NCBI GenBank assembly: GCA_041739665.1
Contig: JBGSNK010000101.1
Coordinates: 3,310 to 67,309, forward strand
Length of the DNA stretch: 64,000 nucleotides
Reading direction: 5' to 3'
Origin: Bdellovibrionales bacterium
GTDB taxonomy: Bacteria > Bdellovibrionota > Bdellovibrionia > Bdellovibrionales > JAGQZY01
Positions 5,953 to 60,050 of the stretch are shown here, one piece after another; the first letter of the stretch is position 1; each line of letters begins with the position of its first letter. The notes beneath the pieces are model-generated. The model saw only the letters and a list, made by a program, of their open reading frames with translations, did no database searches and was not told the DNA's origin. A program made the position numbers and the translations under genes.

Positions 5953-7383
5953 ATGAGTCAAAACGTTCAAAAACTTTCACTTTTTGCGCTCACCGGCTTG
6001 GTTGTTGGTTCAATGGTTGGTGCAGGCATCTTCAATTTACCAGGTCGATTTGGCATGGCCACGGGCCCTTTTGGAGCCATGATAGCCTGGTTGATCGCCG
6101 GTACTGGCATGTATATGTTGGCCAGGGTCTTTCAAACCCTAGCTGAGCGGCAACCCCATATTGATGCAGGTGTTTTCGCCTACGCCAAAGCGGGTTTTGG
6201 TGATTATGTTGGATTTATTTCTGCTTTTGGATATTGGTTAGGGGTTGTCCTTGGGAACACTTTCTACTGGGTTCTAATTGGTACAACTCTTGGTAATTTT
6301 TTTCCTGGCTTTGGTGACGGCAGTACTTTGTTTGCCATCTTAACCTCCCTTTTTGGAATTTGGGCCTTTCACTTCATGATTATTCGCGGTGTACAAAGTG
6401 CAACATTTGTTAATACGGTGGTCACAATCGCAAAGATCATTCCTATCATTGTTGCCGTTATTTTTATGATCATTGCCTTTAACTTTGACCAATTTAAAGA
6501 AAACTTTTTTGGTGGAGTTGGCATGCCTGAAAAGGCTCTGATTGAACAAGTTCGCGATACTATGTTGATCACAGTTTTTGTATTTTTAGGAATTGAGGGA
6601 GCAAGCGTTTACTCTCGCTTTGCAAAGACCCGCGCCGATGTAGGGCGTGCGACAATGTTGGGTTTTGTTGGAGTGACAGGGCTCATGCTCGCTGTGACTA
6701 TTTTGCCCTATGGTAACGCTCCTCAAGCCGAAATTGCCGCATTGACTAACCCCTCTCTTGCGGGGGCTCTTGAAAATTTAGTCGGCCGCTGGGGCAGTGT
6801 CTTTATCTCGGTAGGTGTTCTTGTATCTGTTTTAGGAGCTTTTCTGGCTTGGTCTCTTATTTGTGCAGAAATTCCTTTTGCTGCAGCTCAATCAAAAGAT
6901 ATGCCTGGTTTTTTTGCGAGACAAAACGCAAATAAAGTTCCATCCACAGCTCTGCTTATTTCAAATTTACTTGTTTCTCTTTTTATTATTTCAACTTATT
7001 GGTCAAGTGATGCCTTCTGGTTCATGCTCAATATGGCCTCGGTAACATCGCTGATTCCCTACCTGTTGGTGGCGGGATACGGGTGTTTAATGGCTCATCG
7101 CTTTGATGGCTACAAAAAAGGCGAAGCTCATTTGGCAAAAGTTGATTTTAGGATTTCCATTATTGCTGTTGCCTACACCCTCATCATGTTTTTGGCGGCA
7201 GGGATTAAGTACATTATTTTGGTCACTCTACTGATTGCCCCGGGAACTGTTTTGTATATTTGGGCAAGACGCGAGCAAAAATTAGTTATTTTCAAAGGCT
7301 ATGAGAAAGTCATCTTTATATCCGTCTTGCTCGGCGCAGCTGTTGGCTTGATCGCCTTATTAACCCATCAAATCACCCCATAA
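5953..7383 (+). CDS. arcD: Arginine/ornithine antiporter (APC family)
   Basis: LVVGSMVGAGIF and FLGIEGA APC motifs, about 12-13 hydrophobic segments, directly upstream of arcA. Confidence 0.88.
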   Translation: MSQNVQKLSLFALTGLVVGSMVGAGIFNLPGRFGMATGPFGAMIAWLIAGTGMYMLARVFQTLAERQPHIDAGVFAYAKAGFGDYVGFISAFGYWLGVVLGNTFYWVLIGTTLGNFFPGFGDGSTLFAILTSLFGIWAFHFMIIRGVQSATFVNTVVTIAKIIPIIVAVIFMIIAFNFDQFKENFFGGVGMPEKALIEQVRDTMLITVFVFLGIEGASVYSRFAKTRADVGRATMLGFVGVTGLMLAVTILPYGNAPQAEIAALTNPSLAGALENLVGRWGSVFISVGVLVSVLGAFLAWSLICAEIPFAAAQSKDMPGFFARQNANKVPSTALLISNLLVSLFIISTYWSSDAFWFMLNMASVTSLIPYLLVAGYGCLMAHRFDGYKKGEAHLAKVDFRISIIAVAYTLIMFLAAGIKYIILVTLLIAPGTVLYIWARREQKLVIFKGYEKVIFISVLLGAAVGLIALLTHQITP

Positions 7384-7397
7384 TCTAAGGAGTTTTT

Positions 7398-8642
7398 ATG
7401 TCAGAAAAAAAATTTGGAGTTCATTCTGAAGTTGGTCAATTACGCAAAGTTTTAGTTTGCTCGCCCGGAAGAGCTCATGAGAGATTAACACCTTCAAACT
7501 GTGATGACTTACTCTTTGATGATGTGATGTGGGTTGAAGCTGCCAAACGGGATCATCTTGATTTTTGTTTGAAACTCAAAGACAGAGGTGTCGAAGTACT
7601 AGAAATGCATGATCTCCTTGGTCAGACTGTGAATATCCCTGAGGCCAGAAGGTGGATTCTCGATAACCGTGTAACAGCCAATGAAGTGGGTCTTGAGCTT
7701 ATGGACGAGGTTCGAGCCTACTTGAATGATGTACCCAGTGCCGAGTTAGCGCAGATTCTGATAGGAGGACTCTCTGTCGAGGAATTTACGGGCGCGACCC
7801 ATGCGACTGACCTTTCAAAAATGATCCGACAGTCCCCTGGAATTAGTCAATACCTGATTTCACCCCTGCCTAATACCCTTTACACTCGTGATACTACCTC
7901 ATGGATTTATGGTGGAACTACGGTCAATCCACTTTATTGGCCAGCTCGCCAGGATGAAACCCTGCTAACCACAGCGATTTATAAATTCCACCCTGATTTT
8001 GCCGGAAAAGTAAAAGTTTGGTGGGGAAATCCAGAACAACACAGCGGTCTTGCCACTGTAGAAGGCGGAGATGTTATGCCAATAGGCAATCGTACCGTTT
8101 TGGTCGGACTTTCTGAACGCACTTCACATCAAGGAATTGCACTGCTGGCTAAAGCATTATTTGAGCAAGATGTCGTTGACCATGTTCTCGTCGCCGGAAT
8201 GCCAAAGCTTCGAGCCGCAATGCACCTGGACACCGTCTTCACATTTGCAGATCGCGACTGTGTTCTCATTTATCCTGATATTGTGAATTCAATTTCTGCT
8301 TATAGTATTCGTCCCGGCCAAAATGGTCGCTTTGATATTCGAAACAACGATAAAGGTTGGACGGAGGCTGTTCGTGAAGCATTAAACCTCAAAAAACTTC
8401 GAGTTGTTGAAACGGGTGGTAATGCCTATATGAGAGAGAGAACTCAGTGGGATTCAGGAGCCAATTTAGTTTGTGCCTCTCCTGGAGTGGTCTTTGCTTA
8501 TGATAGAAATACCTATACCAACACTCTGCTTCGCAAAGAAGGGATTGAAGTGATTACGATTCCTGGTGCCGAGCTTGGTCGGGGACGTGGCGGTGGACAC
8601 TGTATGACTTGTCCAATCAGTCGAGACCCGATCGATCTTTAA
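7398..8642 (+). CDS. arcA: Arginine deiminase
   Basis: [33 protein letters not shown] and [11 protein letters not shown] catalytic motifs. Confidence 0.97.
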
Positions 8643-8710
8643 AAATTATTTATAATTTATCCTGCGCGACAGGAAAATCTCTGTTTGATATCTGGCTCTC
8701 TGGCCAGAGA

Positions 8711-8758
8711 CTTTGAGGCTTTGAGGCTTTGAGGCTTTGAGGTCTTGAGGTCTTGAGG
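8711..8758. repeat. Tandem 8-bp repeat, (CTTTGAGG)4(TCTTGAGG)2
   Basis: Read directly from the sequence, in the convergent intergenic region after arcA. Confidence 0.95.
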
Positions 8759-8900: not shown

Positions 8901-9413
8901 CTATTTGATGTTAAACTTCTTCTTATAAGCTTCTCTGCACTTTCTTTGATTTAAGGGGTGGAGGCGTTGGCAATCTTCAAGACATTGGATTTTCATGTTA
9001 CGAAAAAATAGATCGCCAGTTTTTGTTCCGCATCCATTTTGTGGATCCCACCTTTTGGCTTTTAAAGGCCCATTCGAACTTTCATTTTCTTTAGCATTGG
9101 CATTTTTTTTCTGAGCCCCTTCTTTGTTTAAAGACACAATCGTGCAGCTATGACCATAGAGTGGAAAAAGATAAAGCCAGCTTTTACTTTCCACAGTGGC
9201 CACGTCAGCTGGAGTTAAGTTGTTTTCTCTTAAAACAGTATCAATACGTTTGCGTTCTGCAAAAGTAGGAAAGCCAAAGATATAGTCGGTACAACTTTCA
9301 ATCTGGAAGTTCGAAGGTTCTCCCTGACCAATCGAGACAGGGCCCTAATGGGAGCAGTTTGTGAAAAAAAAGAAGCCGCTGAAGACAAAGCAAATTTTGT
9401 TTAATTTGAACAT
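8901..9413 (-). pseudogene. Putative small lipoprotein (TRL/Bor-like) interrupted by one in-frame TAG at 9345-9347
   Basis: SD GGGAG then ATG 9413: MFKLNKICFVFSGFFFFTNCSH*GPVSIGQGEPSNFQIESCTDYIFGFP..., continuing in frame into the 8901-9203 ORF (..LFPLYGHSCTIVSL..). Confidence 0.7.
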
Positions 9414-9549
9414 TTGAAAACTCCCGAGGTTATCATCGAGATTTCTACTTAATACGCGTCATTAACTTTGGCAATGGGTGTAGGGTGAGGGTTCTCCGCT
9501 TTTAAATAGGGTCTAAACCATGGAGAGAGAGTCTGTGGGCCGCCCCAAA

Positions 9550-9584
9550 TTGTCACCGTTGACAAGAATGGTCACTGTTGAAAA
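9550..9584. promoter_or_regulatory. Tandem palindromic operator/enhancer-like sites TTGTCA-N4-TGACAA and TGGTCA-N4-TGAAAA
   Basis: Perfect palindrome at 9550-9565 and a degenerate copy at 9569-9584. Confidence 0.55.
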
Positions 9585-9647
9585 AGGGCGCCATTGTCTA
9601 AGTAGCTGAGAAGACTTGTTATTTATTTTGGCTCAGGAAAAAAGTGG

Positions 9648-9664
9648 TTGGCCTTTTGTTTGCT
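9648..9664 (+). promoter_or_regulatory. Putative sigma54 (-24/-12) promoter
   Basis: TTGGCCTTTTGTTTGCT: TGGC and TTGC with exact GG-N10-GC spacing. Confidence 0.55.
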
Positions 9665-9674
9665 TTACTAGAGG

Positions 9675-9731
9675 ACACGATCCCATATCCCCCTTTTTCG
9701 ACCTGGAACACAAACCAGGTCGTTTTTTTTT
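9675..9731 (+). ncRNA. Candidate ~57-nt small RNA
   Basis: Lies between the -24/-12 motif and a plus-strand intrinsic terminator; contains single-stranded UCCCAUAUCCCCCUUUUU. Confidence 0.45.
9699..9731 (+). terminator. Rho-independent terminator, plus-strand polarity
   Basis: CGACCTGG-aacacaaa-CCAGGTCG followed by T9; on the minus strand the hairpin is followed by A5, not U. Confidence 0.8.
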
Positions 9732-9736
9732 GTCTT

Positions 9737-10636
9737 TTACAAAGCGAAAAGAAGTCCTACTTTAGCAGAAAGACCCGAAGTGGTGACGTCATCAGATGGA
9801 GGGAAGTAAAGGTAATCCGCTCCGATAAAAAGCTCCATGCTTCCGATAGGGATTGAGACTCCCCCTCCTATAATAAGTAAGCTTGTGGTTGAAATGGAGC
9901 TTTCGTCAAGAGCGGCGTCTCCTGCAGGACTGAGTTCGGAAGAGAGCGGCGAGTAAATACCCACTCCACCGTTAACAAAAAGTCCAAAGCTACTGGAGTC
10001 TACGATATTGTAGCGAGCCAGAATGTCGACAGTTAAATAATTGATGTCTGTTTGGTAATTGTTGCCACCACCACTGCCAGTCACAGAAAACATATCCAAA
10101 CCAAAGCGACCACGCACACCAAGGGAGCCAAAGAGAGAGTAGTCCACGAGTCCTTTGACACCCATCAGGGAGCCAGTCATATCAGCTTTGTTTGCGACAC
10201 TTTGGGTGGCTGTTCCGAAGCTACCTAAAACTCCAAAACGAAGATCGGCTTGCTTTGATGAAGAAGGCGAGCTGACTTCTTCTTTTGCAATTTCGGTGGC
10301 AGTTTCGTAGGTACTTTCACTTGGTCGGCTCTTCTTTTTGCCAGCGTAAGGAGCTGAGACTAAGCCACGAGCCGCTTTGCCTTTTCCGAGTTGGGCAATC
10401 ACTTTATTGCCTTTCATATTGCGAACCATAACGAGGGCTTTTTTCTTGCCATCGGGAGTGGAAAGTAAAAGTTTATCGCCCTTATTTGTCGAGCTGACTT
10501 CACTGGCATCGAGAATGATGAAGACTTTTTTGCCACTGACTTTTACAACACGACCTGCCCAGGAGTTTTCTGTGCTCAGCAAAATACTAGTAGTTAAAAT
10601 GATCATCAAATAAAGCGGAAACAGGTTGCGTCCCAT
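9737..10636 (-). CDS. Outer-membrane beta-barrel protein with an N-terminal soluble domain
   Basis: Signal peptide (..SWA), Lys-rich small beta domain, linker, then alternating-residue barrel strands (GLFVNGGVGIY, LFIGADYLY, KVGLLFAL). Confidence 0.7.
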   Translation of the reverse strand: MGRNLFPLYLMIILTTSILLSTENSWAGRVVKVSGKKVFIILDASEVSSTNKGDKLLLSTPDGKKKALVMVRNMKGNKVIAQLGKGKAARGLVSAPYAGKKKSRPSESTYETATEIAKEEVSSPSSSKQADLRFGVLGSFGTATQSVANKADMTGSLMGVKGLVDYSLFGSLGVRGRFGLDMFSVTGSGGGNNYQTDINYLTVDILARYNIVDSSSFGLFVNGGVGIYSPLSSELSPAGDAALDESSISTTSLLIIGGGVSIPIGSMELFIGADYLYFPPSDDVTTSGLSAKVGLLFAL

Positions 10637-10786: not shown

Positions 10787-11218
10787 TTAGAAAGGGATTT
10801 CCTCGCTGCTATCAAAAGATGGCTCAGGACCAAAATCTTGGTGTCCCATGCTACCACTGTTGTTAGCAGAAGACCCTTGAGAGCGCTCATTGCCACCCAG
10901 AAATTGCACAGTGTTGGCAACAATTTCAGTTGTGTACTTTTTTTGTCCCTGCTGGTCTTCCCAAGAGCGGGTTTGCAAGCGTCCTTCAATATAAACTTGG
11001 CGGCCTTTACTTAAATGTTGACCACAGATTTCCGCAACTTTGCCCCAGACCACAACACGATGCCATTCTGTTCTCTCTTGCTTTTGGCCATCGCGATCTG
11101 TCCAGTTCTCACTTGTTGCGAGACTGAGTCTGCAAACAGTTTGTCCGGAAGAGACAGTTTTCACTTCGGGGTCAGCCCCAAGTCGTCCTACAATTATTAC
11201 TTTATTTACGCCTGACAT
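10787..11218 (-). CDS. ssb: Single-stranded DNA-binding protein
   Basis: [32 protein letters not shown] motifs; acidic EEIPF tail. Confidence 0.98.
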
Positions 11219-11249
11219 AGATATGTCCCCCTTTTGAAGAGTTTTGTTG

Positions 11250-13525: not shown

Positions 13526-15157
13526 TCAATTCTTCCTCTTCACTTTAAAGTTGAAGGCAAAAAGGATCCGATTGTCTTCTTTTTGAATTTTTGCGGGGAC
13601 TAAATCAACTTTTCCATCTAAGGCCAAGGAGCTCAGAGCTTTTTGTAAAGACTGTATGGTTTTTTGGTCTTTGGCTAGCCCTTGGATATCGACTTGTTCG
13701 TTGTTGATAAAGAAGCGACGTACTTCATAACTCTGATCAGTCTTATTGAGAGGAAAAACTTGACTCACATCGTTTAAAAGTTTGATGGGCGAATTTAAAT
13801 TGTCTAAGTCACCAAGAACTTCAACCATTTTAGCCTTATTGTTATTTTCGCGAATAAAAGCTCTAATTTTAGATTGGGTGGCACTTCCACCTTTTAGGTT
13901 GGCAATTTTTCCGGCTTGTTCAACAAGGACATCGTGCGATACCTCTTCAAGTTGAGTGCCGATAAAATCCAAAGAGAAACTGTACATACAAAATAAAATG
14001 TATATTGTGGCCACAACTTTGCTTGTGTAGCCCCATTTGTCCCATAACTTTTCAAAGGATTGGTTCTTTTTAGCGAATTCGAGTTGTCTAAAATTGATGG
14101 CTGGGTTGAACGGGCGTTTGAGACCCTCTATTGCAAGGCCTACGGCCAGTTGAAAACGCTCATTTAACTGAAATCGATCGCGAATGTTGAAGTGGCCAAG
14201 GTTTTCGTTTGGGTTTGTGATCTGGCAAGACATTTCAAGCTCTTGGTTAAAATAGCCCGCCAAATTTTTGAGTTGGCTAGCGTTGCCGAGCAAGTCCACC
14301 TGTTGAACTTGGGTGCCGAATTCAGAATTTACGAGAAGTGTGGTCAAACGGCAGGCTTGTAGCAAGGGAGCCAGAGCATCGGCTACAGTTTCTGACATTT
14401 TAATTTGATCTTTGTTGGCTCCCTCGGAGCTCATCAATAAAAAAGCTTTTTCAGGCATCATATCGAGAGCCGTTGGGTAAGGGACTTGAAAACTTTGGGC
14501 AATTTTATGAGCCACTTGTTCAACACCCCAAAGGATACTGCGCCCCCAAATCACTCGACCTTCACTAAGAACCCCTAGAAAACTTTTTGAGTGTCCAATG
14601 TGAACCAATAGTTTGTCGACCTCGGCTCCCTTAAGGGGTGCAAAATTATCGACGCTGAACTGCCAATTTTCATAAAGATTTGCCAAGGCCGATAGCTCAG
14701 GCGTAATGATCTCGGGATCAATATGCCCTCGGTTAAAGAGGTCAATCATGTTTTCGATCTCATCACTGACACAAGCCATTGCCACCACTTCGGCATTGTT
14801 ATCTTTGTAGCGAATAATCTTTGAGTCGAAAACGGCCCTTTCAACGGAAATAGGAATGTCGTCTTCCATTTCGAATGCTAAACTTTTATGAATCTTAACT
14901 CTCTCGCGGAAAGGAAAGAAAATCTTACGAGTGCTGACATATTGTTGGCGAATCGAGCAAATGACTCGAGCAGAATCGGTGTCAAATTCTTCAGAAATTT
15001 GTTTGAGGGCTTGCAAGATCTCGATTTCTTGATCATTGGATTTGTGATTGATGATCACATATTCTTTATGATTGGTGACTTCATAAGTACGATTGCTCGC
15101 AAAAATTTCGACCACTTTTATGCTGTAGCGTCCAATGTCAATTCCAATACTTCTCAT
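13526..15157 (-). CDS. gspL: Type II secretion GspL with PilM-like actin-fold domain
   Basis: IGIDIGRYSIKVVE actin-like start, AVGLA, INFR motif, TM and PilN-like C-terminus. Confidence 0.85.
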   Translation of the reverse strand: MRSIGIDIGRYSIKVVEIFASNRTYEVTNHKEYVIINHKSNDQEIEILQALKQISEEFDTDSARVICSIRQQYVSTRKIFFPFRERVKIHKSLAFEMEDDIPISVERAVFDSKIIRYKDNNAEVVAMACVSDEIENMIDLFNRGHIDPEIITPELSALANLYENWQFSVDNFAPLKGAEVDKLLVHIGHSKSFLGVLSEGRVIWGRSILWGVEQVAHKIAQSFQVPYPTALDMMPEKAFLLMSSEGANKDQIKMSETVADALAPLLQACRLTTLLVNSEFGTQVQQVDLLGNASQLKNLAGYFNQELEMSCQITNPNENLGHFNIRDRFQLNERFQLAVGLAIEGLKRPFNPAINFRQLEFAKKNQSFEKLWDKWGYTSKVVATIYILFCMYSFSLDFIGTQLEEVSHDVLVEQAGKIANLKGGSATQSKIRAFIRENNNKAKMVEVLGDLDNLNSPIKLLNDVSQVFPLNKTDQSYEVRRFFINNEQVDIQGLAKDQKTIQSLQKALSSLALDGKVDLVPAKIQKEDNRILFAFNFKVKRKN

Positions 15158-58751: not shown

Positions 58752-60050
58752 CTACACAAGCAAGCTTGCCAAAGCCGCTGTGGTAAAGGCTGCCAAGTTG
58801 CCGCCAATTACTGTGCGAATACCGAAGCGAGCTAACTCGTGACGCCGCTCGGGGATCAAGGGTCCAATTCCTCCTAATTGAATGGCAATAGATGAGAAGT
58901 TGGCAAAACCACACAAACCGTAAGATAAAATAATAAGGCTGCGCGGATGTAGGCTATCTTTTAGGTTGGCTAAATCTAAGTAAGCAATGAATTCATTAAA
59001 GACAACTTTTTTACCAATCAATCCAGCGGCCAGACCTAATTCGCCCCAAGGAAGTCCTAGGCAAAAAGCGATGGGTTTAAAAAGAAAACTTAAAATAAGG
59101 GTTAGAGAAAGTTGTGGGGGAGAGCCATCGGCGAGAGTTATCCCAATGGCCGAGCTCCAGTTTGGAAAGCCAATAAAGTTTCCAAAGCCAATTAAGAGAG
59201 CATCAAAAAGAGCAATCAGCGCGATAAAGGCTAGCAACATTGCCGCCACATTAATAGCCAGCTTCATCCCATCGCTGGCACCAGCGGCTGCCGCTTCTAT
59301 CACGTTGATGTGCTCTTTGCTTTTCTCTTTTGGAATAGAGCCTAGAGTTTCGGGAGTTTCCGTCTCGGGCACCATAATTTTAGCAATGACAAGGGCCGCT
59401 GGTGCTGAAAGCACACTGGCGGTGAGTAGGTGACCACCGATATTGGGGATCAAATCTTTGAGGATGCCCACATAGGCGGCCATGACAGAGCCTGCAATAG
59501 TGGCCATTCCTCCGGTCATCAAGGCAAAAAGTTCAGAAGAAGTCATTTTTTTGAGATAGGGCTTAATAACCAGAGGGGCCTCGGTTTGGCCGACAAAAAC
59601 ATTGGCGGCAGCGGCCAAGGACTCAGCTCCGCTGAGGTGCAAGGTCTTTTGCATCAGCCAAGCAAAGCTATTGACCACCAGTTGCATCACCCCAATATGG
59701 TAAAGGACTGTCATGAGAGAGGATAAGAAAACGATGATGGGTAAAATTTGAAAAGCTAAAATAAAGCCGGACTGGTCGGAGTGGGCAAGATCTCCTAATA
59801 AAAACTGAGAACCTACCTCGGTAAATTTTAAAATGGCAAGGATGGCAAAGTTGGCTTTGGCGAACAGAAACTGAGCGGGTCCATCAAAGCCAAGTCTTGG
59901 AATGCCGAGAACAAGCAGTGCCAAACTCCATTGTAAGGCCAAGCCAAGAAAGACAATTTTCCATTTCACACGAGATCGATCAGTCGAAAAAGAAAGGGCT
60001 ATCAGTAAAAATACGGAGATGCCAAAAAGACCCTGTAAAGTTTGAATCAT
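58752..60050 (-). CDS. NupC/CNT-family Na+/nucleoside cotransporter
   Basis: AANVFVGQTEAP, GGMATIAGSV, NEFIAY and LCGFANFSS motifs. Confidence 0.95.
   Translation of the reverse strand: MIQTLQGLFGISVFLLIALSFSTDRSRVKWKIVFLGLALQWSLALLVLGIPRLGFDGPAQFLFAKANFAILAILKFTEVGSQFLLGDLAHSDQSGFILAFQILPIIVFLSSLMTVLYHIGVMQLVVNSFAWLMQKTLHLSGAESLAAAANVFVGQTEAPLVIKPYLKKMTSSELFALMTGGMATIAGSVMAAYVGILKDLIPNIGGHLLTASVLSAPAALVIAKIMVPETETPETLGSIPKEKSKEHINVIEAAAAGASDGMKLAINVAAMLLAFIALIALFDALLIGFGNFIGFPNWSSAIGITLADGSPPQLSLTLILSFLFKPIAFCLGLPWGELGLAAGLIGKKVVFNEFIAYLDLANLKDSLHPRSLIILSYGLCGFANFSSIAIQLGGIGPLIPERRHELARFGIRTVIGGNLAAFTTAALASLLV

Follow-up and report, generated by a model that had tools for sequence, protein, structure and literature searches.

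What is encoded in the intergenic stretch 9389-9736 (348 nt) of the window, by which we mean the whole 64,000-nt piece of contig JBGSNK010000101.1 from a Bdellovibrionales bacterium that was analysed, where a promoter-like element and an intrinsic terminator read from the plus strand while an open reading frame (ORF) of 52 amino acids on one side and an outer-membrane protein (OMP) gene on the other read from the minus strand? An earlier note on this DNA, made from the letters alone, had taken the unit for a sigma-54-type small RNA (sRNA) gene, and the comparison with related genomes supports that reading as far as sequence can. Our best explanation, held with reasonable though far from complete confidence, is that the unit represents a new family of sigma-54-dependent, Hfq-independent sRNAs of 53-66 nt, whose C-rich seed would pair with Shine-Dalgarno sequences. 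From the features described below we infer that the unit is transcribed, where its 5′ end lies, that it depends on sigma-54, and that it acts in trans and on which targets.

The anatomy of the unit is compact (coordinates in Table 1). The promoter-like element combines TTGGC and TTGCT in exact GG-N10-GC spacing (GG at 9650-9651, GC at 9662-9663, 10 nt between them) and, with the C of the GC taken as −12, the predicted +1 is 9675; both the element and the start lie where the earlier note had put them. No sigma-70-like site was found on the plus strand from 9437 to the RNA. Folded as RNA, the predicted transcript forms a single hairpin of −14.1 kcal/mol (z = −4.0), none of 200 shuffles folding as well, and the minimum-energy fold accounts for 0.75 of its ensemble. 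Both this fold and the centroid structure leave the first 24 nt single-stranded, in agreement with the unpaired anti-Shine-Dalgarno seed that had been proposed, and the C/U-rich tract within them is conserved. The terminator stem is formed by 9699-9706 pairing with 9715-9722 (eight pairs, six of them G-C) and is followed directly by T9 at 9723-9731. Read from the minus strand, the hairpin runs into A5G4 in place of a U tract, so the terminator has plus-strand polarity only, as had been claimed, and the hairpin cannot serve as a minus-strand intrinsic terminator at the 3′ end of the OMP mRNA, a possibility that the earlier note had itself raised. Within the seed of the predicted RNA there is neither a start codon nor an ORF with order-wide conservation.

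Conservation separates this unit from its surroundings. A BLAST search with the 348-nt intergenic region gave matches in 9 of the 12 genomes of the genus and in none of 28 more distant genomes, and every match covered only query positions 258-348, from the −24 element to where the T-run ends. Relatives accordingly keep promoter, seed and terminator together, and not the rest of the intergenic region, which is the pattern of co-conservation that the earlier note had proposed to look for. In the genus alignment a near-invariant block begins just 5′ of the predicted start and takes in the C/U-rich tract. Identity of the neighbouring OMP protein reaches only 49-58% among the same genomes in which the seed is nearly invariant, which makes the non-coding element far better conserved than its neighbour.

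The wider distribution was followed with covariance models. The first (R1), built from nine genus loci, found the element in all 12 genomes of its own genus, in three of four genomes from two further genera of the family and in 70 of the 151 genomes of an order sample. After rebuilding from 30 aligned matches (R2), the number in the order sample rose to 113 of 151 (98 of 124 high-quality genomes, 55 of 69 genera and 12 of 13 families). In a phylum sample R2 detected 22 of the 23 order members and a single genome, weakly, among the 127 outside the order. On these counts the predicted RNA gene is conserved across most of Bdellovibrionales.

The −24/−12 positions, the stem and the T-run are retained in all of the 30 aligned loci, as are five or more consecutive C ahead of a U, and the length of the predicted RNA stays between 53 and 66 nt throughout. 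The GG, the GC and the flanking T and TTGCT positions of the promoter are kept in every locus while the 5-6-nt spacer varies, as expected of a promoter that selection maintains. In the stem, 99.2% of 239 cells are paired and four of the eight pairs have changed on both sides, although these counts are inflated by the fitting of the alignment (A4) to the model and come from related genomes that are not independent observations. The covariation score was reached by none of 500 shuffles and all slid controls were far lower; within the genus alone, an A/U swap in the stem is compensated on the opposite arm. We also noticed that in other genera the loop is C-rich as well, often with a CCUCC-type motif, unlike the loop in the genus of the window.

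The RNA gene is present in single copy nearly everywhere, and the idea of a multi-copy repeat or mobile element was rejected on this ground. Tandem copies occur in two genomes: two in G001 (L049, 1501-1592 and 2033-2121, ~530 nt apart) and four in G065 (G065:C1:1674522-1675863, with ~420-nt spacing). An apparent second copy in G010 (L009 and L012) turned out to be one locus on overlapping contig ends, with identical downstream sequence. Two weak model matches of 25 bits on one contig, G005:C17 (L056, 1501-1587, and L057, 1501-1576), combine a terminator with several C-rich motifs, lack a −24/−12 promoter and may represent a different C-rich sRNA.

The genome also encodes proteins expected of a sigma-54 system. 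The rpoN gene, which the earlier note had left to be looked up, is present (Sigma54_DBD at 222.9 bits in a 487-amino-acid frame), together with 12 genes for enhancer-binding proteins (Sigma54_activat, E ≤ 1e-58; nine of them also with HTH_8 at E ≤ 1e-4), of which eight are of the response-regulator type, two are short, one carries an FHA domain and one has no assigned N-terminus. When an activator was sought among nearby genes, none of the 12 was found on the contig of the window. A high-scoring enhancer-like site near an activator gene on C89 has no −24/−12 partner, and feedback of the RNA on activator mRNAs was unconvincing, the best of 11 start regions giving −15.0 kcal/mol against −18.3 kcal/mol for ssb.

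A close examination of the putative activator region upstream of the promoter confirmed that the two tandem palindromes described earlier at 9550-9584 are present, but the unit conserved in relatives is the dyad made by their inner pair, of TGACAA-N3-TTGTCA type (window 9560-9574), and not TTGTCA-N4-TGACAA. With up to two mismatches allowed, this dyad is placed between −107 and −127 in nine of the ten genus loci and at −153 in the remaining one, with a further half-site ~20 nt downstream of it in the genus loci, and elements resembling it occur in other genera. In an unbiased k-mer count the most enriched word was ACAATT, which occurs in 16 of the 28 zones upstream and in ~1 of the 26 taken as background. 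The AT-rich tract between the dyad and the promoter may be a DNA-bending site, presumably of the IHF type, and three HU/IHF-family genes in the genome would fit such a bending step. A similar dyad lies 58-114 nt upstream of a −24/−12-like site at two other places in the genome (G000:C56:4058-5173 and G000:C90:37531-37950, both on the minus strand), one preceding a 371-amino-acid protein whose matches to TPR and aspartyl-protease families are weak and fall short of the Pfam cut-offs, and the other a 139-amino-acid membrane-like protein.

Table 1. Position, strand and evidence for the features of the predicted sRNA gene and its neighbourhood in the window
Feature	Position	Strand	Evidence or description
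Putative upstream activator (enhancer-like) region	9547-9584	+	three to four TGACAA/TTGTCA-type half-sites, ~90-128 bp before the predicted start
AT-rich tract between enhancer and promoter	9598-9629	+	block aligns in 10 genus loci, partly conserved
−24/−12 (sigma-54 type) promoter, GG-N10-GC	9649-9664	+	sequence; conservation in 30/30 aligned loci; rpoN present
Predicted sRNA, ~57 nt	9675-9731	+	start from promoter geometry; fold; covariance-model matches
Unpaired C/U-rich seed (C3, then C5, then U5)	9681-9698	+	near-invariant in genus; order keeps C-run and UU
Intrinsic terminator (8-bp stem, 8-nt loop, T9)	9699-9731	+	sequence, fold, covariation
52-amino-acid ORF, left flank	9230-9388	−	without Pfam match
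Convergent outer-membrane beta-barrel gene, right flank	9737-10636	−	Pfam OMP_b-brl, E = 3.9e-7
ssb	10787-11218	−	Pfam SSB, E = 6.1e-42
ssb ribosome-binding site, candidate target	11226-11235	−	10-nt exact complement of 9688-9697

Taken together, 9547-9731 would form a stand-alone regulatory sRNA gene, complete in all its parts. One of the 12 enhancer-binding proteins would bind the TGACAA/TTGTCA half-sites ~100-125 bp upstream, possibly assisted by DNA bending at the AT-rich tract, and once bound would switch on the RNA polymerase-sigma-54 complex at the −24/−12 promoter. Transcription would start near 9675 and stop at the T9 terminator, giving an RNA of ~57 nt whose unpaired 24-nt C/U-rich 5′ tail would pair with the G-rich Shine-Dalgarno regions of a subset of mRNAs, ssb being one candidate among ~15-40, and this pairing would block ribosome binding without the help of Hfq. 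For the last point, a search of the window's genome (96.4% complete) with PF17209 gave no Hfq match, while Hfq was detected in control genomes. A C/U-rich unpaired tail in a genome where no Hfq was found is the design of the Hfq-independent, C-rich sRNAs that pair with Shine-Dalgarno sequences, and the RNA probably silences selected genes by placing its C-rich end on their ribosome-binding sites.

The earlier note had pointed to an exact 10-nt complementarity of the seed to the ssb ribosome-binding site. The complementarity itself stands: the window contains the 10-mer AAAAGGGGGA two times, as the complement of the seed and again 7 nt before the ssb start codon, against a shuffle expectation of 0.45 (two or more occurrences in 7 of 100 shuffles), and a 9-nt core of the ssb-site complement is kept in 9 of 13 genus genomes. 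In 8 of the 13 the distance between the RNA gene and ssb is 1.0-2.7 kb. Two genomes with a diverged seed, G001 and G012, also have a different ssb site, which by eye fits their own seed except for one bulge, and in genus g35 (complete genomes of 3.0-4.2 Mb, from another family) 19 of 20 ssb sites read GGAGGG, fitting the loop motif of the RNAs of that genus. A joint change of seed and ssb site seems to have happened in three lineages; this is suggestive only, as it was read by eye, amounts to at most three events and involves motifs close to the general anti-Shine-Dalgarno sequence. Other counts speak against a specific link. At least 15 other start regions in the genome match the seed equally well, and 86 other genome stretches of at least 10 nt are complementary to it, 31 of which adjoin an ORF start, including those of apparent hbd, acs and motB-like genes. 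We regard ssb as a candidate target whose match is not statistically distinctive. A ranking of targets by RNAduplex energy over 4405 ORFs was dominated by spurious ORFs and long internal loops and was not used. As a separate observation, an element resembling TGACAAAAAAC is conserved ~15-25 nt before the ssb ribosome-binding site in most of the 20 ssb loci of g35 (L110-L129).

The gene context in relatives bears on whether the unit stands alone. The OMP gene is the convergent neighbour of the unit in the window as well as in L003, L006 and L011, with 0-17 nt between the OMP stop codon and the end of the RNA (5 nt in the window, so that any 3′ read-through of the OMP gene would be antisense to the RNA); in L007 and L008 the unit faces another, intervening convergent gene, and in L004 and L005 a co-directional gene comes next. 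With convergent neighbours, the unit is not the leader of a downstream gene in the window, L003, L006, L011, L007 or L008, although no other sequence of the region is as well conserved. Outside the genus it sits between two divergent genes, one for a secreted coiled-coil protein with a C-terminal SH3_3 domain and the other for an Amidase_3 protein followed by rph. It is usually directed at the amidase gene, but in g35 it points the opposite way, with its terminator ending 52-67 nt 5′ of the coiled-coil gene. We read the unit as an independent gene because its orientation flips relative to the same neighbours and because it is near-invariant where no co-directional gene follows.

The coiled-coil/SH3_3 gene, the ancestral neighbour of the RNA in other genera, has a copy in the window's own genome (G000:C98:7945-8942). 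Its orthologues in the genus (L096-L105) have their own conserved −24/−12 promoter 25-35 nt before the ribosome-binding site in 10 of 10 cases, several with a TGACAA-type element ~170 nt further upstream, and the gene may belong to the same regulon as the RNA. A divergent sigma-54 promoter shared between the RNA and this gene in other genera was considered and rejected, as it was seen in only 1 of 19 loci.

Several observations weigh against the reading as a stand-alone sRNA gene, beyond the fitted alignment mentioned above. In the nine genomes of three genera that belong to the same family as the window, neither R1 nor R2 finds a copy. Promoter matches are common, the core pattern occurring 47 times exactly in the genome, against 16.4 expected from base composition, with three of these in the window, and 625 sites being found at a looser score; alone, the motifs are not beyond chance, and what lifts them above it is their conservation. 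A genome-wide excess of seed complementarity was not found either, the seed-complementary 10-, 11- and 12-mers numbering ~106, 20 and 4, where shuffles average 87.5, 18.4 and 3.5, once the 16-18 windows that are the RNA gene itself are excluded. The ratio of G5-type to canonical ribosome-binding sites is 0.51-0.92 (one outlier at 1.7) in genomes without a detected RNA and 0.46-1.25 in the genus, and with such overlapping ranges it was dropped as a line of support. Finally, 16 of the 20 loci from beyond the core group have a co-directional ORF whose start lies no more than ~160 nt past the terminator, the gap being only 26-27 nt in L063 and L070, which would also fit a leader.

These co-directional ORFs and short gaps are the substance of an alternative in which the unit acts in cis, as a 5′ leader or attenuator. 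What the sigma-54 promoter would then drive is the downstream gene, namely the cell-wall amidase-rph operon in most genera and the secreted coiled-coil/SH3 gene in g35, with the C-rich leader and the terminator setting the level of read-through, the short RNA arising as a by-product and the copy in the window being an orphan. The short gaps in L063, L070 and g35 leave little space for a separate promoter, and the amidase starts mostly have no obvious Shine-Dalgarno sequence. Yet in the window and in at least five other genus loci the unit faces a convergent gene and is near-invariant all the same; an 8-9-bp G+C-rich stem followed by eight or nine U is a strong stop; and no anti-terminator pairing of the 5′ tail with either arm of the stem is evident, the minimum-energy structure dominating its ensemble. 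The spacing argument is itself weak, since between divergent genes either orientation is upstream of, and co-directional with, one of them. As a general account we consider a leader unlikely, and a leader or read-through role may apply in the lineages with gaps of 26-160 nt. The RNA might instead work as a decoy or sponge, its C-rich tail (and, in other genera, its loop) titrating an RNA-binding protein. Protein sequestration is known from other sigma-54-dependent sRNAs, two C-rich single-stranded patches recur across the order, and complementarity to mRNAs shows no statistical enrichment, all of which would suit a sponge. We nevertheless find it quite unlikely, as no candidate C-binding protein was identified, the loop in the genus is not C-rich, and the tail is conserved over ~18 nt including positions other than C, which is more typical of a pairing seed.

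The closeness of the OMP stop codon to the RNA in the window, L003, L006 and L011, and the lack of a U tract behind the hairpin on the minus strand, invite the thought of a cis-antisense partnership, in which an OMP transcript with no terminator of its own would read through the RNA gene and pair with the RNA over seed and hairpin, controlling the stability of the OMP mRNA, or in which the two would interfere with each other's transcription. This arrangement is confined to part of one genus, and the RNA is conserved where the next gene is co-directional (two genus loci), where another gene intervenes (two more) and where, in other genera, the neighbours differ; an antisense role as the main function of the unit is for us decidedly improbable. 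Least credible, to the point of being hard to sustain, is an untranscribed DNA-level site for protein binding or recombination that merely resembles a promoter and a terminator. The abundance of promoter-like matches would allow for it, but such a site would hardly account for compensatory changes in the stem, for a T-run after the stem in 30 of 30 aligned loci, or for strict GG-N10-GC geometry at a fixed distance from the terminator in the same 30. The stand-alone, sigma-54-dependent sRNA gene is the account we retain.

The earlier note had not recognised such an RNA from this lineage, and no known RNA family matches it. Rfam 15 has no family for the element, the best overlap in the window reaching 19.4 bits against a gathering score of 60 in an unrelated Bacillus family, and a search of 17 homologous loci in E-value mode matched nothing at the element. 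A full-text literature search found no sigma-54-dependent sRNA from Bdellovibrio-like organisms. Among sRNAs that invite comparison, Qrr has several stem-loops and needs Hfq, whereas here there is one hairpin, ~57 nt and no Hfq found; GlmY and GlmZ are much longer, and GlmY acts through protein sequestration; the C-rich sRNAs of Firmicutes pair with G-rich Shine-Dalgarno regions without Hfq; and Myxococcus Pxr and the Campylobacter jejuni RpoN-dependent sRNA differ from the present RNA in size and structure, C. jejuni lacking Hfq. None of Qrr, Pxr or the C. jejuni sRNA is linked to the element by an Rfam match.

In control architecture the closest counterparts appear to be Qrr and GlmY/GlmZ, and in function the C-rich Firmicute RNAs. 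Qrr of Vibrio (sigma-54 and LuxO) is likewise a short stand-alone gene with a −24/−12 promoter, activator sites and its own terminator. Further likenesses to Qrr are a copy number that varies between species and a presumed pairing at translation initiation regions, and the differences lie in the lineage and in the sequence of the activator sites. GlmY/GlmZ (sigma-54 and GlrR, with IHF) share activator sites ~100 bp upstream and an AT-rich tract in between. They also share a link to the cell envelope, the ancestral neighbours here being the cell-wall amidase and the secreted SH3 protein, without any match in sequence or structure. Unpaired C-rich motifs are a feature of RsaE/RoxS of Firmicutes and the Rsa group of Staphylococcus aureus, from which the present RNA differs in having no homology, in occurring in a Gram-negative predatory lineage under sigma-54/enhancer control and in being about half the size. 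Sigma-54 dependence has been reported or predicted for Pxr and the C. jejuni sRNA. Papers on these systems include PMC10162802 and 10.1101/2021.07.01.450815 for Qrr, PMC3045617 for GlmY/GlmZ, PMC2790875 for the C-rich Firmicute RNAs, and PMC5568312 and PMC11187230 for the sigma-54-dependent sRNAs of other lineages.

From the same order, the only sRNAs that we found described are those of Bdellovibrio bacteriovorus: APsRNA1-7 and merRNA, which are 98-655 nt long and attack-phase specific, three having FliA promoters (PMC3627812), and the hit-locus sRNA of 261 nt (PMC3818213). The accessible text of these papers describes no sRNA as sigma-54 dependent or as ~55-60 nt long, although their supplements might list a start site at the homologous locus. 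Hardly any exploration has been made of sRNA regulation in Bdellovibrio-like predators, the published RNAs being specific to one species and of unknown function (PMC3627812, PMC3818213). A compact RNA gene present in three quarters of the sampled order genomes, with a readable enhancer, −24/−12 promoter and terminator, offers a testable entry point. It would add a Gram-negative, sigma-54-driven case to the C-rich, Hfq-independent RNAs that pair with Shine-Dalgarno sequences and are known mainly from Firmicutes, and it would tie sigma-54 to post-transcriptional control beside cell-wall genes. A bolder version, possible but in our view doubtful, makes the RNA an order-wide master riboregulator of Bdellovibrionales. 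One enhancer-binding protein together with sigma-54 would switch on the 53-66-nt, Hfq-independent RNA, whose C-rich tail and, in many genera, CCUCC-type loop would mimic the anti-Shine-Dalgarno end of 16S rRNA and shut a class of G-rich ribosome-binding sites including that of ssb, coupling an envelope or prey signal to replication and growth. Were this true, the RNA could take part in switching between the attack and growth phases.

Some minor observations on the genome and the neighbourhood remain. Ribosome-binding sites of AAGGGGG type (ATG 4-9 nt on) are about as frequent in the window's own genome as those of AAGGAGG type (43 vs 48), and each type is 7-10 times more frequent than its reversed control, the counts covering the own genome (G000) and 25 genomes of the family. 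Two more exact matches to the promoter core (T-GG-C, 7 nt, TTGCT) lie in the window at 14008-14023 (plus strand) and 59233-59248 (minus strand), with no close start codon within the 74 nt shown. Of the two minus-strand genes that the earlier note had placed around the unit, the right one is confirmed by its Pfam match and the left one amounts to a short ORF without any. Coding capacity was rejected for two plus-strand ORFs (9616-9765 and 9644-9856), both of which overlap the OMP gene and cross indel-rich loop columns, and for a 17-codon minus-strand frame beginning within the seed, which by eye is not kept outside the genus. No tRNA or tmRNA gene was found in the window. Further upstream, the plus strand carries a tandem pair of genes, for an amino-acid permease (5953-7383) and an arginine deiminase (7398-8642). 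Just 3′ of the latter, within a 63-amino-acid minus-strand ORF without family match, is an 8-nt tandem repeat (8707-8758) of 6.5 copies with 93% matches.

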